Below, piece after piece: positions 4,100-32,000 of a DNA stretch of 32,000 nucleotides (the stretch's first letter is position 1; each line of letters opens with the position of its first letter). The notes beneath the pieces are model-generated. The model was not told where the DNA came from. It saw only the letters and a list, made by a program, of their open reading frames with translations, and did not search any database. The DNA lies in assembly GCA_948469815.1 (NCBI GenBank), contig CAOKMR010000004.1:1-32000 (forward strand). Reading direction: 5' to 3'. The position numbers and the translations under genes are program-made. This DNA is from an uncultured Clostridiaceae bacterium. Lineage in GTDB: Bacteria; Bacillota; Clostridia; TANB77; CAG-508.

Positions 4100-4915
4100 T
4101 TACGCCAAATTATATGTTTTGTCAAGTACATTTTTATATTCTTTTTCTTTAATTTTTCCATTACTTCCAATTAAGCTTTTAATGATGACTTTGCCTTTTT
4201 TTATGTCTTCTTCTATATTCTCTATTTTATCATTTCTATATAAATAACTTTCATATATCTCTGATTTTTCAAAATCTTTTGTCCAATCTAATACACTCAT
4301 TAATCGATTCTCAAAATCTATTTCATATGAATGTATATTTATTCCCGAAAATCTTTTTGAGTTTACATTTACTTTTTCCTTTAAATTAATCAATATTGCA
4401 TTATCATCTATTTTATATCTGTTCAATATTTCTTCTTCAAAATTAAAATTAAATATTACATCTACATCTTGTAATCCTTTTCTTTTATTGTTTGATATTT
4501 CTAATACTATTCCTTTATTATAGTATAAATTTTCTTCTATTATATGAAATTTTTCTCTATGGTTTGTTATTATTTTTATTTTATTACTTTTTTTAGTTAA
4601 TTCATTTATATAATAGGATATTAATTCACTATTTTCATTTGTTACAAGTGCTATTTTAAGTTCCTTTATATTTACATTCTGGCATGATGAAATATATTCT
4701 AATATTTGAATAACTAAAAATTTGAATAGCCATCTTCCATCAGAAATTGGAATTCCTATATTTTCAATTTTTTCAATCAATTCAATGTTTTGTTTTAATT
4801 CTTTACCTATTACAATACATATACAGTCTTTCTTTTTCTTTTTTATATATCTTAATAATAATCTCTGTTTTATTTTAGATTTTTTGCCTTGTCCAGATAT
4901 ATATATTGCTTTCAT
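4100..4915 (-). CDS. Hypothetical protein, 271 aa, Lys/Ile/Asn-rich
   Basis: Long ORF with an RBS, sitting 35 nt upstream of greA on the same strand. I recognise no motif. Confidence 0.6.
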   Translation of the reverse strand: MKAIYISGQGKKSKIKQRLLLRYIKKKKKDCICIVIGKELKQNIELIEKIENIGIPISDGRWLFKFLVIQILEYISSCQNVNIKELKIALVTNENSELISYYINELTKKSNKIKIITNHREKFHIIEENLYYNKGIVLEISNNKRKGLQDVDVIFNFNFEEEILNRYKIDDNAILINLKEKVNVNSKRFSGINIHSYEIDFENRLMSVLDWTKDFEKSEIYESYLYRNDKIENIEEDIKKGKVIIKSLIGSNGKIKEKEYKNVLDKTYNLA

Positions 4916-5015
4916 TTATATCACCAATTAATATATATTAAAATATTTAATATTTTAGAAGCTATTTTTTCGTAAATATTTTCATATTTTATTCAAAGCA
5001 AATAGAAAAATACTA

Positions 5016-5681
5016 TTACATTTTTCTAAATACTCCACTTACTTTTCCTAATATTTGACAGTCTGGAACTATTATTGGATCCATTGTTTCATTTTCTGGT
5101 TGTAATCTTATATGGTCTTTTTCTTTGTAAAAAGTTTTTACTGTTGCTTCATCTTCAATTAAAGCAACTACAATTTGTCCGTTTTCTGCTACATTTTGTT
5201 TTCTTACTAAGATTAAGTCTCCATCAAGTATTCCAGCTTCAATCATACTTTCTCCTCTGACTTTTAACATGAAACTTTCAGTATTTCCTACAAAGTCTAA
5301 AGGAATAGGAAATGTCTCTGTTACATTTTCTACTGCAAGTATAGGTGCTCCAGCAGTAATTTTTCCAATTACAGGTACTTCTACTAATTCTCTTCCACCA
5401 TAGAAATCTTTTGCTTCTGCTTTTTTCTTACTTATTTCCTCTCCTTTTGCATTTTTTATTAATCTTAATGTTCTTCCTTTTTTATCTTCTTTTTTTATGT
5501 ATCCTAATTCTGAAAGTCTCGCTACATAACCATGAACAGTTGCTGTTGATCTTAATCCTACTTTTTTACCTATTTCTCTTACTGAAGGTGCATAACCATT
5601 TTCTTCTATTTCCTTTTCAATATATTTTAATATAGCTTTTTCTCTTGTATTTAAGTCCTCTGGATTTTTTCTTCTTTTCAT
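5016..5681 (-). CDS. lexA: LexA SOS repressor
   Basis: N-terminal wHTH (YAPSVREIGKKVGLRSTATVHGYV), autocleavage region (KITAGAPI) and S24 peptidase Ser/Lys (VRGESM ... VKTFYKE). Confidence 0.95.
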   Translation of the reverse strand: MKRRKNPEDLNTREKAILKYIEKEIEENGYAPSVREIGKKVGLRSTATVHGYVARLSELGYIKKEDKKGRTLRLIKNAKGEEISKKKAEAKDFYGGRELVEVPVIGKITAGAPILAVENVTETFPIPLDFVGNTESFMLKVRGESMIEAGILDGDLILVRKQNVAENGQIVVALIEDEATVKTFYKEKDHIRLQPENETMDPIIVPDCQILGKVSGVFRKM

Positions 5682-5718
5682 ATTTAATCTACTCCCTTTC
5701 TTAATATGTAAAATTTAT

Positions 5719-5750
5719 TTGGAAAAGGATTATTTTTAATCCTTTTCCAA
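5719..5750 (-). promoter_or_regulatory. Perfect 12-14 bp hairpin inside the predicted lexA leader
   Basis: ttGGAAAAGGATTA-tttt-TAATCCTTTTCCaa. It lies between the predicted lexA promoter (5813-5841) and the start codon (5681). Confidence 0.5.
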
Positions 5751-5812
5751 AACTAACCCTCATTTCTAGTATTTTCTTACCGACAAACATCTTTTTCATA
5801 TTGATTGCCTTA

Positions 5813-5852
5813 ATGATAACACAAAGTTTTATATTTGTCAAACACTTTTTCG
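5813..5852 (-). promoter_or_regulatory. lexA promoter with an overlapping LexA (Cheo-type) box
   Basis: On the minus strand: TTGACA (5836-5841), 17 nt, TATCAT (5813-5818). CGAAAAAGTGTTTG (5839-5852) matches CGAAC-N4-GTTCG with 2 mismatches and overlaps the -35. Confidence 0.55.
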
Positions 5853-5886
5853 TACTTTTTTAAAAATTTTTATTATTGTATTAAAT

Positions 5887-6615
5887 CTAGTTTTTATTAA
5901 TAGTTATTATTTCATCATGTATTACTTTTATAGGATTTTTATAACATAATTCATCTATTTCATTTTCTGATAAATATTTAGATATCTTTTTTATATATTT
6001 AGCAATATTTACATATATTGTTCTTTTATTATGAACATCACTTCCTAAAAATTGTATCATTCTACTCTTTAATAATTTAATAACAGTTTTTTTCGCAGCT
6101 GTACCATAATAACCATCTATACTTGCAAAATTGGCTTGTAATAAAGCTCCTTTTCCCATAAGATTTTTTATAAATCTTATATCTTTTTGTACATAAGGAT
6201 ATCTTTCTGGATGAGCAATTATTGGTATATATCCGTTTTTTATGATATTTTCTATAATTTCACTTGAATTTTTTGTAGGTTCATTGTTTATTGAGAATTC
6301 AATTAATAAATATCTGCTATTATTTATTCTATATATCTTTTCTTCTGTTAAAAACTTACATGTTTCATTTGTCCCATATATCTCATTACCTTGATATAAA
6401 TGTATTCCAACTCTCTTAGCATCCATTTCTAGTTCTTTGATTTTTTCTTTAATATAATTAGTATCTTTTTCATAAAAACCTTTCATATAATGAGGTGTAC
6501 ATACTATTCCAGTAAATCCTGCTTTTCTTGCTTCATATAATAATGCCACGCTTTCTTCAAAACTGCTTGCTCCATCATCTGTATCAGTTAAAATATGTGC
6601 ATGTAAATCTATCAT
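5887..6615 (-). CDS. PHP-family protein-tyrosine phosphatase (CpsB/CapC/YwqE type)
   Basis: Metal-ligand motifs DLHAHIL, TDDGA, CTPH, AHPERY and GSDVH. Confidence 0.85.
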   Translation of the reverse strand: MIDLHAHILTDTDDGASSFEESVALLYEARKAGFTGIVCTPHYMKGFYEKDTNYIKEKIKELEMDAKRVGIHLYQGNEIYGTNETCKFLTEEKIYRINNSRYLLIEFSINNEPTKNSSEIIENIIKNGYIPIIAHPERYPYVQKDIRFIKNLMGKGALLQANFASIDGYYGTAAKKTVIKLLKSRMIQFLGSDVHNKRTIYVNIAKYIKKISKYLSENEIDELCYKNPIKVIHDEIITINKN

Positions 6616-27508: not shown

Positions 27509-27627
27509 TTTAAATCATTCCTTTCTCTATTTTTTAACATTTTTCGATAATTTTGCATATTTTATAATAATGATAATTAAAGGAATTAGCTTCCTATATC
27601 ATAAAAACTTATAAGGAGGAAATAATA

Positions 27628-27993
27628 GTGTTCACTCGTAGATGTAGACGTAATTGCTGTTGTCCTATGAATAATATGGATAATAACAATTCTTGTGATT
27701 ATGAAACAATATGTAATGATGTTTCAAACAATTGTTGTTGCAAAGATAATGATGATTGTGGTTGTGGATATGACGATGATAACTGTTGTGGAGATATATT
27801 CCCATATAACCCAATGTTTGCTCAAAGTTATGTTCCTATTCAACATATGGATAAAACTTTTGTACCTTGTGTTGGATTAAAAAAAGGAACAATATTCCCT
27901 GAATTGGTTGACCCATATTATCCTTGTCAATCAATTGATTTTATAAACTTTATTAAAGATACTAACGATATTGGAGAGGGGTGTAATGGATGA
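27628..27993 (+). CDS. cotJA: Spore coat-associated protein CotJA with a Cys-rich N-terminal extension
   Basis: The conserved CotJA core AQSYVPIQ...LKKGTIFPELVDPY follows a 56-residue segment with 13 Cys. GTG start 8 nt after AAGGAGG. Confidence 0.85.
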   Translation: MFTRRCRRNCCCPMNNMDNNNSCDYETICNDVSNNCCCKDNDDCGCGYDDDNCCGDIFPYNPMFAQSYVPIQHMDKTFVPCVGLKKGTIFPELVDPYYPCQSIDFINFIKDTNDIGEGCNG

Positions 27994-28310
27994 ATAACGA
28001 ATGCTGTGAAAACAATGTAGAAGAAAGAAATTGTTGTTGTGATTGTCATGAAAATGACTGTGATAAAACTAGAAGAGAAATGCTAATGCAAATAAAAGAA
28101 TATGATTTTGCTTTAGATGAATTAAATTTATATTTAGATACTCATCCAGATGACTCTAAGGCCCTATGTTTGCATAATAATTATTCAAGAACATTAAGAG
28201 AACTAGAAACTGAATATCAAAGAGTTTATGGTCCATTAACTGCCAATTATCCATGTAAAAAATGGAGATGGCTTGAAGAACCATGGCCTTGGGAAAGGGG
28301 GATTATGTAA
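27990..28310 (+). CDS. cotJB: Spore coat protein CotJB
   Basis: CotJB core (YDFALDELNLYLDTHPDD ... YGPLT). ATGA start/stop overlap with cotJA. N-terminus has 7 Cys in 25 residues. Confidence 0.9.
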   Translation: MNNECCENNVEERNCCCDCHENDCDKTRREMLMQIKEYDFALDELNLYLDTHPDDSKALCLHNNYSRTLRELETEYQRVYGPLTANYPCKKWRWLEEPWPWERGIM

Positions 28311-28312
28311 TT

Positions 28313-28531
28313 ATGTGGGATTATAAAAAGATTTTACAATATCCAATAAATATAAAGACGCCTGATCCAAGATTAGCTAAAGTGATAATTTCTCAATATG
28401 GCGGACCTGATGGAGAACTTGCTGCCTCTTTAAGATATTTGAGTCAAAGATTTGGAATGCCAGATCAAAATGCTAAAGCTATATTAAATGATATTGGTAC
28501 AGAAGAATGTGTACCATTATGTTGTCAATAG
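28313..28531 (+). pseudogene. cotJC: 5' portion of cotJC (Mn-catalase-family spore coat protein), interrupted after ...DIGTEE
   Basis: MWDYKKILQYP...DPRLAKVIISQYGGPDGELAASLRYLSQRFGMP...LNDIGTEE matches the CotJC N-terminus. After 28507 it reads CVPLCCQ*. The full-length family is about 190 aa and continues with (F/L)AH.E. Confidence 0.85.
28496..28515. repeat. Inverted repeat at the cotJC break point, candidate recombination (att) core
   Basis: GGTACA-gaagaatg-TGTACC, centred at 28505/28506. This is exactly where CotJC homology ends. Confidence 0.5.
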
Positions 28532-28564
28532 CTAAAGACAGTGATTGCAACTTTAACTATTGAC

Positions 28565-29773
28565 TTATATATTTACTTCTTCTAATAAAAAATCTATTAT
28601 ATTCATATGAATAATTCCATTTTGGCTATAATTAATTTTATCCATTGAGAGAACATATTTAGGATAATTATCATCAACAAATTTGTATGCTCCAAATTCT
28701 CTTTGCATAACTTCATCACTTGATAAATAATCTGTTACTTGTATATATTTTCTTTCTCCAAAGTCATCAATTACAAAATCAATTTCTCCTTTATCAGTTT
28801 TTCCTATATACACATCATATCCTCTTGCAATTAATTCATTGTATACAATATTTTCTAATCTTCCACCAATTTTTTTCTCGATTGGAGATTTTTTTAACTG
28901 CAATAGTCCTAAATCTGTTAAATAATATTTTTCTAATGTCGCCATAACATTTTTTCCTCTAATATCATACCTATTTACTTTATTTACAATTAGGGAATTT
29001 GTTATATATTCTACATAATTTAGAATTGTATCTGGAGTTGTTTGTATTTTCTCATTTTTTAAATATGAAGTAATTGAATTAGAAGATATTATTCCACCAA
29101 TATTTTCCATAATAAATTGAATTACTCTATTTAATAAATTTATATCTTTAACTTTGTTCCTTTCTATAATATCTTTTAATATTGCACTATTATATAAATC
29201 TTTTAAATATAATTTTCTTTCGTCAGCACTATCTGTATTAAAAATTTGTGGCATACATCCCCATTCTATATATTCTAAAAAAGATTTATCTATATTTATT
29301 TCCTCTTTTTTCTCTTTCTTAAGTTCTAAATATTCTTTAAATGTAAATGGCATCATTTTAATACTTATATATCTTCCAGCTAAATGCGTTGCTAGTTCAC
29401 CAGATAATAATTTACTATTTGAGCCTGTTATAAATATACTAACATTTAAAGTTGCTCTAAAAGAATTAATAACCTTTTCAAATTCATTAACATTTTGGAT
29501 TTCATCAAAAAGCAAATAATATTTTTCCTCATCTTTTATTTTTTCTTTTACATACATATTGAATTTCTTTGGTTCTGTAAAATCTATATAATCATAATCT
29601 TCAAAATTCATATATATTATATGATCTGCTTTTATTCCTTTTTGTTTTAATTCTTCTATTATTTGTTTCATTAATACTGATTTTCCTGAACGTCTAACAC
29701 CAATAATTACTTTTATCAATTCACTATCATATGAATCTCTTATCTTTTTTAGGTACATTTCACGTTTTATCAT
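28565..29773 (-). CDS. AAA-type ATPase with a C-terminal DUF4143-like domain, 402 aa
   Basis: Walker A GVRRSGKS and Walker B YLLFDEIQ. The architecture is typical of the AAA_14/DUF4143 family. RBS AGGAGG. Confidence 0.8.
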   Translation of the reverse strand: MIKREMYLKKIRDSYDSELIKVIIGVRRSGKSVLMKQIIEELKQKGIKADHIIYMNFEDYDYIDFTEPKKFNMYVKEKIKDEEKYYLLFDEIQNVNEFEKVINSFRATLNVSIFITGSNSKLLSGELATHLAGRYISIKMMPFTFKEYLELKKEKKEEINIDKSFLEYIEWGCMPQIFNTDSADERKLYLKDLYNSAILKDIIERNKVKDINLLNRVIQFIMENIGGIISSNSITSYLKNEKIQTTPDTILNYVEYITNSLIVNKVNRYDIRGKNVMATLEKYYLTDLGLLQLKKSPIEKKIGGRLENIVYNELIARGYDVYIGKTDKGEIDFVIDDFGERKYIQVTDYLSSDEVMQREFGAYKFVDDNYPKYVLSMDKINYSQNGIIHMNIIDFLLEEVNI

Positions 29774-29921
29774 TATTCCTTCCTCCTATGTTTTAAATTT
29801 ATTATATTGTATCACACATTTAATAGTTTTTCAAGTTTTTCCTTCTAAAGTCGTAAAACTTTTAATTTTTCTATATTTTTCGACTTTATGTATATAATTA
29901 GAACTATGGAAAATTTGTATG

Positions 29922-29938
29922 GACGACCATTGGTCGTC
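29922..29938 (-). terminator. Hairpin downstream of the recombinase gene
   Basis: gacgacc-att-ggtcgtc, 28 nt after the recombinase stop. Confidence 0.45.
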
Positions 29939-29965
29939 TGTCTTACAGAGACTCTAAAATTAATA

Positions 29966-31525
29966 TTAAATTTTAGGTAACTTTGGATATATCTGTAATT
30001 CAAAATTTGTTGGATCCGAATCCTTTTTTATATTTTTGTCTATTTTTAAATATGTAACTTTAGCAATAATACTTTTTAATAAAATATTTTTATCTTCAGA
30101 AAACTCTAGTTTATAATACAAATCTATAATATTTTCTAATTTAGGTATCATAGTTTCCTTCTCGTTTTGAATTTCAGTATTTTTATTTAAAAGTTCATTA
30201 TATTCCTTTAATTTGCCTTTTAAATTTACTATATTGTCTTTTATTGATTTTGAACGATTTATAAATTCATCTTTACTATAAATACCATTTTCTAAAAAGT
30301 CATATATTTTATCAAGTTTGGTATTTTCTTTTTCTAATTCTTTCTTAGTTAAAACAATAGATTTTTCAATTAATCTGTTATTATCAATTTTTGAGTTATC
30401 TTTAACTTCATAATCGACCTTATAATTCTCAAGCCATATTTTTAATGCTTCAATAATCTTGTTTTCTACTATATAAAGTTTAGAACTTATATTATCACAT
30501 TTTGAATTAGAACATATAAGTGTTGCAGGTTTATCAGCTTTTGTATAAGGTCTTCGTTGCATAGGTTTACCACATTTCTCACAAAATACAAGTCCAACTA
30601 AAGGATTTTGAATAGTATTACTATGCTTTACTTTTGGAGTATTCTGTTTTCTTTTTTCTTGTACTAATTCCCAAGTTTTATTATCAATAATAGGCTCATG
30701 TAATCCATCATAAATTAGATAATCTTGATTACGAGGTCTACTAATTATAAGATGTCCATTTTTCGTTTTCTTTTTTTGTTTCCTCCTATTCCAAGTTAGT
30801 TTACCAATATAGGTAGGATTAGAAAGAATATCTTTTACAGAAGAAATAGTCCATTCATTTGAAATTCTAGGATTTAAATTCATATCATTTAATTGTTCTA
30901 CAACAGAACCTATTGTGTTACTTTCAAAAGTATATAATCTAAAAATTTCCTTTACAATAGGTGCTTCATTTGGATTAATTGATAAAGTATAACCTTTAGA
31001 ATCTTTTAACTTTACTCTATCATATCCAAAAGGAGCAATATTTCCTACAAACTTACCTTCAGAAACAGAAATTTCTCTACCTCTTTGTAAACGTCTATTG
31101 ATTGTCTTATATTCTCTCCTAGACATAAATAAGCCAAATTCAAAATATTCTTCATCAAACTCATTATCTGGGTCATAAGTTTTAACAGGTGTAATAATTT
31201 TGGTATGAGAATATTTAAAAGCTTTTGAAACTCTTCCTTGATCAGCAGTATCACCACGAGCTAACCTTTCTACTTCAACAACTAAAACACCAGTCCATTT
31301 TTCATTTTCAACATCTTTAAGAAGTTTTTGCATTTCTTTTCTTTCACTAATTGTTTCTCCACTTACAACTTCTCTATAGATTTTTGAAATATGTAGGTTT
31401 CGCTTCTCAGCTAAAGTAGTTAATATTTTCTCATGTCTTGCTAAAGTTTCGCCTTCTCCATATTTTTCAGATTCGATATCTTCTCTTGATTTTCTTAAAT
31501 ATATTGCATATGTGCCATCTTGCAC
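29966..31525 (-). CDS. Large serine recombinase, about 519 aa
   Basis: N-terminal resolvase catalytic domain (YAIYLRKSRED, VVEVERLARG), recombinase domain, zinc ribbon (CEKCGKPM...CSNSKC) and a C-terminal coiled-coil. Probable GTG start at 31525 after AAAGGAGG, since the track's upstream extension has no RBS. Confidence 0.9.
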   Translation of the reverse strand: MQDGTYAIYLRKSREDIESEKYGEGETLARHEKILTTLAEKRNLHISKIYREVVSGETISERKEMQKLLKDVENEKWTGVLVVEVERLARGDTADQGRVSKAFKYSHTKIITPVKTYDPDNEFDEEYFEFGLFMSRREYKTINRRLQRGREISVSEGKFVGNIAPFGYDRVKLKDSKGYTLSINPNEAPIVKEIFRLYTFESNTIGSVVEQLNDMNLNPRISNEWTISSVKDILSNPTYIGKLTWNRRKQKKKTKNGHLIISRPRNQDYLIYDGLHEPIIDNKTWELVQEKRKQNTPKVKHSNTIQNPLVGLVFCEKCGKPMQRRPYTKADKPATLICSNSKCDNISSKLYIVENKIIEALKIWLENYKVDYEVKDNSKIDNNRLIEKSIVLTKKELEKENTKLDKIYDFLENGIYSKDEFINRSKSIKDNIVNLKGKLKEYNELLNKNTEIQNEKETMIPKLENIIDLYYKLEFSEDKNILLKSIIAKVTYLKIDKNIKKDSDPTNFELQIYPKLPKI

Positions 31526-31683
31526 ATTTCCTCCTTTCCTTGTAATTAAGATAGCCGTTGGGAACAAAGTGACCTTACGGATATCTTATGCAAAATGCTT
31601 TAGCATTTTGTATCCTTGAAAACGCATAAGCATCTTGCACTGCCTTTAACTATGATATAAATTATATCTGTAATTGCAACAAA

Positions 31684-31827
31684 TTACAACAAAGAAGGAT
31701 TTATTTTTCTTATTAAATTAATGATAATATTATCTATATATTCTTTTTGAGTAGCAACATCTTTTACTATATAATCATCATAAAATTTTATCTTAGTATT
31801 GCCTAATATGTATTCTTCTACTAACAT
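31684..31827 (-). CDS. Small hypothetical ORF, 47 aa, upstream of the recombinase
   Basis: My translation is MLVEEYILGNTKIKFYDDYIVKDVATQKEYIDNIIINLIRKINPSLL. RBS AGAGG lies 8 nt before the ATG. Too short for the ORF track. Confidence 0.4.
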   Translation of the reverse strand: MLVEEYILGNTKIKFYDDYIVKDVATQKEYIDNIIINLIRKINPSLL

Positions 31828-31868
31828 ATAAATCGCCTCTTTAAATGTATATTAAGTGAATAAAAAAA

Positions 31869-31892
31869 TAGAAGAAAACGTGCTTTCTTCTA
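31869..31892 (-). terminator. Terminator hairpin ending an upstream, off-window minus-strand transcript
   Basis: The minus strand reads tagaagaaa-gcacgt-tttcttcta followed by TTTTTTTA. Confidence 0.5.
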
Positions 31893-32000
31893 TACTATTA
31901 TTATAAATGCTTAATAGCTTAAAACAATGAAATCGTTTTGAAATATTTTTGAAATGTACTATTTCAGATTTTTTGATTTTATATTTTACGCAGGAAAGTG

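Follow-up and report, generated by a model that had tools for sequence, protein, structure and literature searches.

The 32,000-nt window analysed here (positions 1 to 32,000 of contig CAOKMR010000004.1, assembly GCA_948469815.1, from an uncultured Clostridiaceae bacterium) contains near its right end a cotJ operon whose third gene, cotJC, encoding a manganese catalase-type coat enzyme, is split by an intervening element that carries a large serine recombinase (LSR). To the right of the break, an ATPase gene, the LSR gene and an open reading frame (ORF) of 47 amino acids (aa), ORF47, lie on the minus strand; the ORFs and their Pfam domains agree with this arrangement as it was described in an initial annotation made without database searches. 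The operon and the element consist of the following features.

27628-27993, plus strand: cotJA, intact (Pfam CotJA, E 2.3e-13)
27990-28310, plus strand: cotJB, intact (Pfam CotJB, E 5.9e-28)
28313-28508, plus strand: cotJC 5' half, codons 1-65 and the T of the shared core (Pfam Mn_catalase)
28496-28531, no strand: left attachment site (attL), with host half-site GGTACA, core GAAGAAT (28502-28508) and element arm GTGTACCATTATGTTGTCAATAG, mapped against the empty site
28509-32000, no strand: left 3.5 kb of the element; the remainder lies past the window end (contig L001, 5443-7773)
28565-29773, minus strand: cargo ATPase of 402 aa, AAA_14/DUF4143 (Pfam AAA_14, E 2.5e-36; DUF4143, E 4.9e-15)
29966-31525, minus strand: LSR, 519 aa from GTG at 31525 (Pfam Resolvase, Recombinase and Zn_ribbon_recom)
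31684-31827, minus strand: ORF47, conserved orphan of 47 aa directly upstream of the LSR gene, kept in every element of the clade

The ORF that starts at ATG 28313 matches the Pfam Mn_catalase profile over positions 1-67 of 284 only, and the family match ends at Glu65 (nt 28507/8). Specifically, the reading frame runs ...AKAILNDIGTEE, the point (...LNDIGTEE) at which the initial annotation had placed the end of the match, followed by seven element-encoded codons (CVPLCCQ) and a stop at 28529-28531, for a product of 72 aa. The 5' half is identical to the 5' part of an intact CotJC, P0001. The break coincides with the Glu of the E-x-x-H motif, IGTEELAHLEMVG aligning with IAIEEFSHLEMVG of the solved Anabaena Mn catalase 6j42, which confirms its earlier assignment to the EE..H region. 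The inverted repeat GGTACA-N8-TGTACC reported at 28496-28515 is also present, with its halves at 28496-28501 and 28510-28515. In the vegetative chromosome cotJC is a 72-aa stub plus a promoterless 3' half. An identical break point occurs in >35 independent loci, and the split is therefore not a chance event.

The complete element was read from contig L001 (ENA ERZ14864789, 55.6 kb), which has 3 mismatches with the window over 13,436 nt and reaches 7.8 kb beyond the window end. Its limits, set by junction reconstruction and by BLAST against empty-site contigs, define an insertion of 5,823 bp (28509-34331 in window-like coordinates) with a G+C content of 24.4%, no different from the flanks. Past ORF47, the element contains genes for a 282-aa Endonuclea_NS_2 protein and a 324-aa orphan protein, followed by the right attachment site (attR); its five genes thus encode the ATPase, the LSR, ORF47, a nuclease and an orphan protein. 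Directly after the element comes the 3' half of cotJC (L001 4934-5428), a Mn_catalase fragment of 164 aa that is co-oriented with the 5' half and 5.8 kb away from it, distal to the recombinase as the initial annotation had proposed.

Joining the two host sides yields an in-frame CotJC of 234 aa, ...NDIGTEELAHLEMVG..., in which GTEELAHLEM is restored. The rebuilt protein matches Pfam Mn_catalase (PF05067) with E 2.1e-56, aligns to 6j42 with the EE..H motif in register, and is 97% identical to P0001, which has 241 aa. The contigs that encode P0001 (L007-L012) share the gene order spoVT, comF-like gene, cotJA, cotJB, cotJC and DUF6512 gene, and match the window flanks at 95-98% DNA identity. When these empty-site contigs are compared with the window by BLAST, the alignment stops exactly at 28508 and restarts at 34318. 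The predicted bacterial attachment site (attB), GATATTGGTACAGAAGAATTAGCACACTTAG, is read in all six of these conspecific contigs; the element is therefore a discrete insertion, polymorphic for presence and absence within one species.

The attL junction reads ...GATATTGGTACAGAAGAAT|GTGTACCATTATG... and the attR junction ...CATCATGGTACTGAAGAAT|TAGCACACTTAGAA..., and the empty site equals the left side of attL joined to the right side of attR. Both junctions carry the core GAAGAAT, close to the GAAGAATG suggested in the initial annotation. The half-site is GGTACA in attB and attL versus GGTACT in attR, which places strand exchange within GAAGAAT. The predicted attP of the circular form, CATCATGGTACTGAAGAATGTGTACCATTATG, is ~46 bp long and consists of arms of ~18-22 bp, TTGACAtCATCATGGTAC and GTACCATGATGtTGTCAA, around the centre W-GAAGAAT-GT. 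It forms an imperfect dyad around GA, in which 17 of the 24 outward positions are complementary in the window's element, and the crossover dinucleotide is predicted to be this GA, with which the Glu65 codon begins. An imperfect dyad around a 2-bp crossover, with attL and attR as hybrids of attP and attB, is the organisation of LSR attachment sites. Conservation of the element arm at attL extends to 13 loci in genomes and 16 in metagenomes, and the conserved element ends read ...AATTGACAtCATCATGGwAC at one end and GTACCATGATGtTGTCAATAGC at the opposite end. These sites suggest that the element entered by LSR-mediated recombination between attP and the cotJC codons Gly-Thr-Glu-Glu|Leu-Ala-His, and we regard an LSR insertion with these junctions as practically certain. 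Where the initial annotation had allowed for a missing 3' half, for relatives with a truncated cotJC and no element, or for junctions that share nothing, we found a 3' half, uninterrupted cotJC genes in conspecifics and a common core that restores the reading frame.

The LSR has the domains of its family, a resolvase catalytic domain (PF00239, E 2.4e-14) followed by recombinase (PF07508, E 3.3e-24) and zinc-ribbon (PF13408, E 2.1e-06) domains. The motif YLRKSRED, with Arg11 and the putative nucleophile Ser13, is visible in the translation. The protein matches the PHROG integrase family (phrog_95) with E 2.6e-97 and is a full-length homologue of SPbeta SprA, its closest solved structure (PDB 9dxh, E 1.2e-46); the alignment is continuous over residues 9-510 and spans DBD2 and the coiled-coil of 9dxh. 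Relatives at 87-94% identity form >120 clusters (90% clustering). An exact look-up of a 533-aa, TTG-start version returned no match; the called product is the 519-aa protein with a GTG start. Membership in the XisF family was considered and rejected, the NCBIfam XisF score of 98.6 bits lying below the cut-off of 375.

A scan of one genome per GTDB species identified LSRs 75-96% identical to this one in ~20 species of uncultured Clostridium and Clostridia that come from the guts of mice, rabbits and other hosts. By tblastn, nearly all of these species show the cotJC 3' fragment (from residue 61-62), cargo, ORF47 and the LSR gene in this order, then sometimes more cargo, the cotJC 5' fragment (ending at residue 65-69) and cotJB. 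Another 16 metagenome contigs, several of human gut origin, have the same cotJC arrangement. The length of complete elements ranges over 3.3-11.1 kb, and the smallest (L026, L104 and L020) hold little besides ORF47 and the LSR gene. The LSR-ORF47 pair and the element ends are kept at the same cotJC codons, and the intervening cargo differs. Among the scored loci with a full cotJC 3' half (to ~residue 193), none has a stop in that half. Locus L044 (10001-12012) encodes a hybrid LSR, with residues 3-166 being 89% identical to the window's LSR and the remainder 66-71%; its gene adjoins the cotJC 3' fragment and is oriented like cotJC, flipped relative to the window's element and matching the prophage relatives L053, L059 and L040. 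Five independent element-bearing metagenome contigs (L002 and L003-L006) all end inside the LSR gene, which fits a failure of assembly at near-identical LSR copies from several strains or species living together.

The distance from the end of the LSR gene to attL is 60-500 nt in minimal relatives; in the window's element the ATPase gene lies in between. The ATPase sequence is unchanged on 13 public contigs. Its residues 1-399 match PADLOC PDC-S01 (PDLC04787) with E 1.7e-149, a system whose defence function is listed as a candidate in the source database. Among related elements only L027 has this ATPase, and we therefore class it as cargo rather than as part of the core. Cargo elsewhere comprises RhuM, a radical-SAM protein, a PBECR nuclease, ParB_N with PAPS reductase, a sortase and ABC transporters, of which RhuM, the PBECR nuclease and ParB_N with PAPS_reduct are, like PDC-S01, defence- or toxin-like.

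Other interruptions occur in the cotJ operons of related species. The cotJB gene, intact in the window, is split in three other species (L022 10845-17187; L014 12188-17753; L027 11916-19862): the 5' part ends with ...KWRWLEEPW, junk codons and a stop, and a remnant, (N)WPWERG..*, stands just before the cotJC start. The gap of 5-8 kb contains a different LSR, ~25% identical to the cotJC LSR, and the core is ~TGG within CCATGG|CCTTGG. The cotJC 3' fragment is in turn broken again after ...YYTDHGVG (residue ~103-104) in L014 (4257-6980), L017 (916-1044), L105 (3111-3239) and L116 (13934-14062). At L014 this break adjoins a third LSR (546 aa, 4257-5894), so that the cotJ operon there contains three different LSR elements.

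The initial annotation offered a prophage or island with cotJC as its attB as an alternative. PHROG searches with the five element proteins match only the integrase and families of unknown function, with no structural, lysis, replication or lysogeny genes, and a prophage identity was rejected, though phage-borne relatives of the LSR use the same cotJC site. LSRs 44-48% identical are located at the ends of ~40-kb gut prophages; in L053 and L059 the LSR gene is followed directly by a cotJC fragment from residue 63, as it is in Muricoprocola aceti (L040), and in Paenibacillus lacisoli (L034) a cotJC 5' fragment (residues 1-69) adjoins the LSR gene. The target site therefore predates the mini-elements. 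No LSR >70% identical was found in phage collections or among IMG/VR contigs, and the mini-elements are a separate, non-phage lineage. The hallmarks of integrative and conjugative elements (ICEs) and of mobilizable elements (relaxase, coupling protein, type IV secretion system, a recognised oriT) likewise have no Pfam, NCBIfam or PHROG match in the five proteins.

ORF47 is a genuine gene with a narrow distribution: its 267 clusters are almost all of 47 aa, and just 39 representatives occur among 1.84 billion proteins. An AlphaFold2 model consists of a beta-hairpin and a helix (pLDDT 79). Searches of Pfam, NCBIfam, PHROG and PADLOC assign no family, and the PDB contains neither a sequence nor a fold match. 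A suspected resemblance to TnpW-like proteins was not upheld, as neither ORF47 nor its distant relatives match Pfam or NCBIfam even at E <= 10. By analogy with other LSR systems, ORF47 is a candidate recombination directionality factor (RDF).

Noncoding conservation was read from an alignment of 21 elements, which points to separate control regions for the LSR and ORF47 genes; the cotJ operon has a promoter-like site of its own.

31523-31689, minus strand: putative LSR control region (21-element alignment)
31661-31689, minus strand: conserved sigmaA-like promoter, TTGTAA-17-TATAAT, between ORF47 and the LSR gene
31548-31655, minus strand: ~100-nt structured insertion in the LSR 5' untranslated region, in the window's element and L045 only
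31844-31927, minus strand: putative control region upstream of ORF47, with a promoter-like site, a terminator and a -10-like box (alignment)
31900-31927, minus strand: sigmaA-like site, TTGTTT-16-TATAAT, upstream of ORF47 (TTGATT-17-TATAAT in most relatives)
31860-31893, minus strand: terminator, a hairpin and T-run ~60 nt upstream of ORF47
31844-31851, minus strand: mother-cell-type -10-like box before the ORF47 ribosome-binding site, TATACATT in the window's element
27537-27563, plus strand: promoter-like site predicted upstream of cotJA for the cotJ operon, sigmaK type, AC-17-CATATTTT

The terminator upstream of ORF47 varies in stem sequence between subgroups and keeps its pairing, with AGAAGAAA/TTTCTTCT in the window's element and CAAGACAAG/CTTGTCTTG in most others. 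Downstream of it, the -10-like box reads CATAAATT in 16 of the 21 elements and is located ~6 nt before the ribosome-binding site. The box looks more like a sigmaE than a sigmaK site, because GTA/TAT stands where sigmaK promoters have AC; a forespore (sigmaF/G) reading was rejected as a poor fit in both spacing and -10. The sigmaA-like promoter upstream of ORF47, followed by the terminator within ~30 nt, might give a very short transcript or serve as an attenuator or insulator.

Two further features surround the LSR promoter. In nearly all elements the promoter and leader lie between the halves of a 10-nt inverted repeat, TTGTAATTTG/CAAATTACAA, one half being at the -35 and the other just before the LSR ribosome-binding site, where the window's element reads TTAATTACAA; the repeat may be an operator. 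The insertion in the 5' untranslated region folds as two hairpins (-34 kcal/mol, z -2.7), and one stem shows a compensatory change, AAGATATCCGT/ACGGCTATCTT in the window's element and AAGATAGCTGT/ACAGCTATCTT in L045. The insertion has no Rfam match, and Rfam assigns no family anywhere in the element at E <= 1. In a scan for sigma70 promoters and terminators, the only matches to the latter are the attL inverted repeat itself.

In Bacillus subtilis the cotJ operon is expressed in the mother cell and depends on sigmaE. In ~20 loci related to the window (among L014-L033 and L104-L117), the pattern (T)AAC-17-CATAWWWT occurs just upstream of the cotJA ribosome-binding site, and the sigmaK-type pattern has only four matches in the whole window, both strands included. 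Read from sequence, it suggests that the cotJ operon of this clade is sigmaK-dependent, like that of C. difficile and unlike the sigmaE-dependent operon of B. subtilis. CATAWWWT is the -10 common to the mother-cell sigma factors of C. difficile (PMC3789822).

LSR-excised elements in mother-cell sporulation genes are an established class that includes skin (SpoIVCA), SPbeta (SprA-SprB), vfbin, gin (GirC-GirX) and skinCd (CD1231-CD1234) (PMC5595907, PMC5025042, PMC4191935). The structural pattern of skin-like elements, a mother-cell sporulation gene interrupted such that its co-oriented halves join in frame at a short common core, is present at cotJC. We put the probability that the element is excised developmentally, in the sporulating mother cell, at about 0.6, inferring the timing and compartment of excision from analogy and from the conserved promoter-like motifs. 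In the proposed cycle, the LSR would be made constitutively from its own sigmaA-type promoter, and ORF47, insulated by the terminator, would be made in the mother cell only, from the sigmaE-type promoter, and act as directionality factor. Together, LSR and ORF47 would recombine attL with attR, releasing a circle and rebuilding an intact cotJC before the sigmaK-type cotJ promoter fires. The forespore chromosome would retain the element, which would thus be inherited, and the element would also move horizontally among gut Clostridia with exchangeable cargo, here the PDC-S01 ATPase and the nuclease. In skinCd, whose layout is parallel, CD1231 (the LSR) is transcribed from a sigmaA promoter, and CD1234, an RDF of 72 aa, from a sigmaE promoter with its transcription start 14 nt before the start codon (PMC5025042).

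Several observations weigh against developmental excision. The promoter call for ORF47 rests on a short box with a chance rate of 2.5% per 25 nt, its putative -35 is weak (GTA/TAT), and the window's own box, TATACATT, is without the C. Moreover, sigma70-like matches are not enriched in the AT-rich element DNA (55 observed versus 49.7 expected from shuffling), and we therefore dropped single-sequence promoter calls and used cross-species conservation alone. ORF47 has no similarity to SprB or any known RDF; known RDFs are equally idiosyncratic, and SprB itself has 58 aa and acts through one helix (PMC11722253). Nor was an excised form found: a strict attP pattern has 0 matches in metagenome contigs, and all 16 matches to a relaxed pattern are attL. 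Finally, LSR identity is uncoupled from host relatedness as judged by CotJB (Spearman 0.11), the closest host (L026) having an LSR of 86% identity and L020 one of 90% with a CotJB identity of just 41%. The elements therefore move horizontally, so that insertions may be recent and intact cotJC halves need not reflect selection. Decay is seen as well: L028 (6576-12192) has TACGAAT rather than GAAGAAT as attR core, a diverged arm and a frameshifted cotJC 5' half, and the 5' half of L109, on a low-coverage contig, is also frameshifted.

Much of this would suit an ordinary LSR-driven integrative cassette or defence-cargo island that uses the conserved metal-site codons of cotJC as a safe attB with a broad host range; there would be no developmental control, cotJC would be inactive in carriers at a tolerated cost, and excision would be sporadic, for transfer. 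The horizontal spread, the decaying copies and the lack of attP contigs agree with such an island, as do the presence/absence polymorphism within one species and the variable defence- or toxin-like cargo. In C. difficile, moreover, CotJC-type catalases are dispensable for gross spore formation and cotCB/cotD mutants have no major coat defect (PMC11222575), so permanent inactivation of cotJC might be tolerated and a non-developmental, safe-harbour role of the gene stays reasonable. We nevertheless hold this explanation to be somewhat unlikely. Every LSR element in a mother-cell sporulation gene that has been studied experimentally (skin, SPbeta, vfbin, gin, skinCd) is excised (PMC5595907, PMC5025042, PMC4191935), and a terminator-insulated ORF with a mother-cell-type -10-like box beside a separately promoted LSR gene is what regulated excision predicts. 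The cotJC halves are intact in nearly all carriers, and an island would leave its mobility unexplained by any transfer genes.

Descent from a cotJC-targeting prophage that lost its phage genes and its ability to excise, leaving cotJC as an early pseudogene, would account for the ~40-kb prophages at the same cotJC position and for the absence of phage genes in the element. It is improbable, given a full-length LSR in a tight family, att arms that are both conserved across species while the interior is replaced, and an ORF47 held at 47 aa in nearly all of its clusters. The presence of different cargo in many species requires ongoing mobility, and phage LSRs with <50% identity indicate an old, separate lineage. 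A chimeric contig joining cotJC to an unrelated element deserves almost no weight: several Logan contigs do break inside the LSR gene, as is typical of repeats common to strains, but the same junctions are present in independent assemblies of different samples (the 13 contigs with an identical ATPase; L001 and L002, from two ENA assemblies) and in the >35 loci of other species, and a single 55.6-kb contig spans both of them.

Developmental excision of the cotJC element could be part of a broader pattern, which we advance tentatively. In a clade of uncultured gut Clostridia, several orthogonal, non-phage LSR cassettes of minimal size (3-6 kb) may use the cotJ operon as a landing pad, each being excised in the mother cell by its own LSR and a tiny RDF of a new family (ORF47). 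Three types would exist, at cotJC Glu65 (as in the window), near cotJC residue 104 and at the cotJB 3' end, each of which, as long as it stays in the vegetative and germ-line chromosome, would carry exchangeable cargo of the defence or toxin type. If true, this would amount to a multi-step programmed DNA rearrangement comparable to the heterocyst nifD/fdxN/hupL excisions, and spore-coat genes would offer a safe harbour to accessory genes that spread horizontally.

Elements of this family are frequent in gut metagenomes of mouse, rabbit and human and bring defence-type cargo with them, which is relevant to the spread of accessory genes among commensal spore formers. For annotation, cotJC or cotJB fragments and pseudogene calls in such genomes should not be taken as gene loss. 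The 3.3-kb relatives, with an LSR, a 47-aa partner and two ~22-bp arms, are the smallest complete skin-like set that we found in a spore former, and so small a number of parts makes it possible to test how excision is confined to the mother cell. If ORF47 is an RDF, it would represent a new, unusually small RDF family with well-defined attP and attB sites and would provide an orthogonal integrase/RDF pair usable in low-GC Firmicutes.

Interruption of cotJC itself has been mentioned before. A preprint (bioRxiv 10.1101/2021.11.22.469490) cites Abe et al. 2013 for cotJC as an in silico interruption target, and Galperin et al. 2022 (bioRxiv 10.1101/2022.02.25.481979) report an in silico interruption in Laceyella sacchari. 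In the accessible portions of these sources, the same target gene appears in one-line mentions of phage-, transposon- or skin-like interrupters in other taxa, with no junctions, recombinase family, distribution or experiments given; we found no paper that supplies these for a cotJC interruption.

Among characterised systems, skinCd in sigK of Clostridioides difficile (PMC5025042) is likewise a clostridial element inside a mother-cell sporulation gene, with an LSR that has its own sigmaA-type promoter and is oriented opposite to the split gene, and with a separate small ORF (72 aa in skinCd, 47 aa in the cotJC element) that has a mother-cell-type -10 box, putative in the cotJC element, very close to its start codon. 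Unlike sigK, cotJC encodes a coat enzyme and not a sigma factor, and no regulatory cascade therefore depends on excision of the element. The cotJC element is also smaller (5.8 kb, with a family minimum of 3.3 kb, versus 14.6 kb) and free of phage-like genes; ORF47 is unrelated in sequence to annotated proteins, and excision of the cotJC element, unlike that of skinCd, is inferred. The gin element in gerE of Bacillus cereus ATCC 10987 (GirC/GirX; PMC5595907) is a non-phage intervening element as well, with an LSR and a small accessory factor, a short common core (9 bp in gin, 7 bp here) inside an imperfect inverted repeat, and horizontal spread without transfer genes of its own. However, gin is 28.6 kb long, contains three recombinases and has been shown experimentally to be excised during sporulation, whereas the cotJC family is 5-9 times smaller, has one LSR and occurs in many species of uncultured gut Clostridia.

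SPbeta provides the closest solved structure for the LSR (PDB 9dxh/9dxd), and its SprA/SprB pair (PMC4191935, PMC5499854) combines a constitutive integrase with a small, sporulation-controlled RDF of 58 aa, the division of labour proposed here for the LSR and ORF47. SprA rebuilds the spore-surface gene spsM in sporulating B. subtilis (PMC4191935), to which the rebuilding of cotJC may be likened. In contrast to the cotJC element, SPbeta is a 134-kb active prophage in another target gene, and SprB is not similar to ORF47. Cyanobacterial heterocyst elements (fdxN element/XisF) also use serine recombinases on genes needed only in a terminally differentiated cell, and several of them can occupy one gene cluster; they belong to a different phylum and cell type, and the present LSR is not an XisF member. 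By these comparisons the cotJC element has the structure of a skin-like intervening element with an LSR system and lacks that of a prophage or an ICE. It stands out because it is very small, occurs widely in uncultured gut Clostridia, carries cargo that can be exchanged and adds a new candidate family of RDFs.

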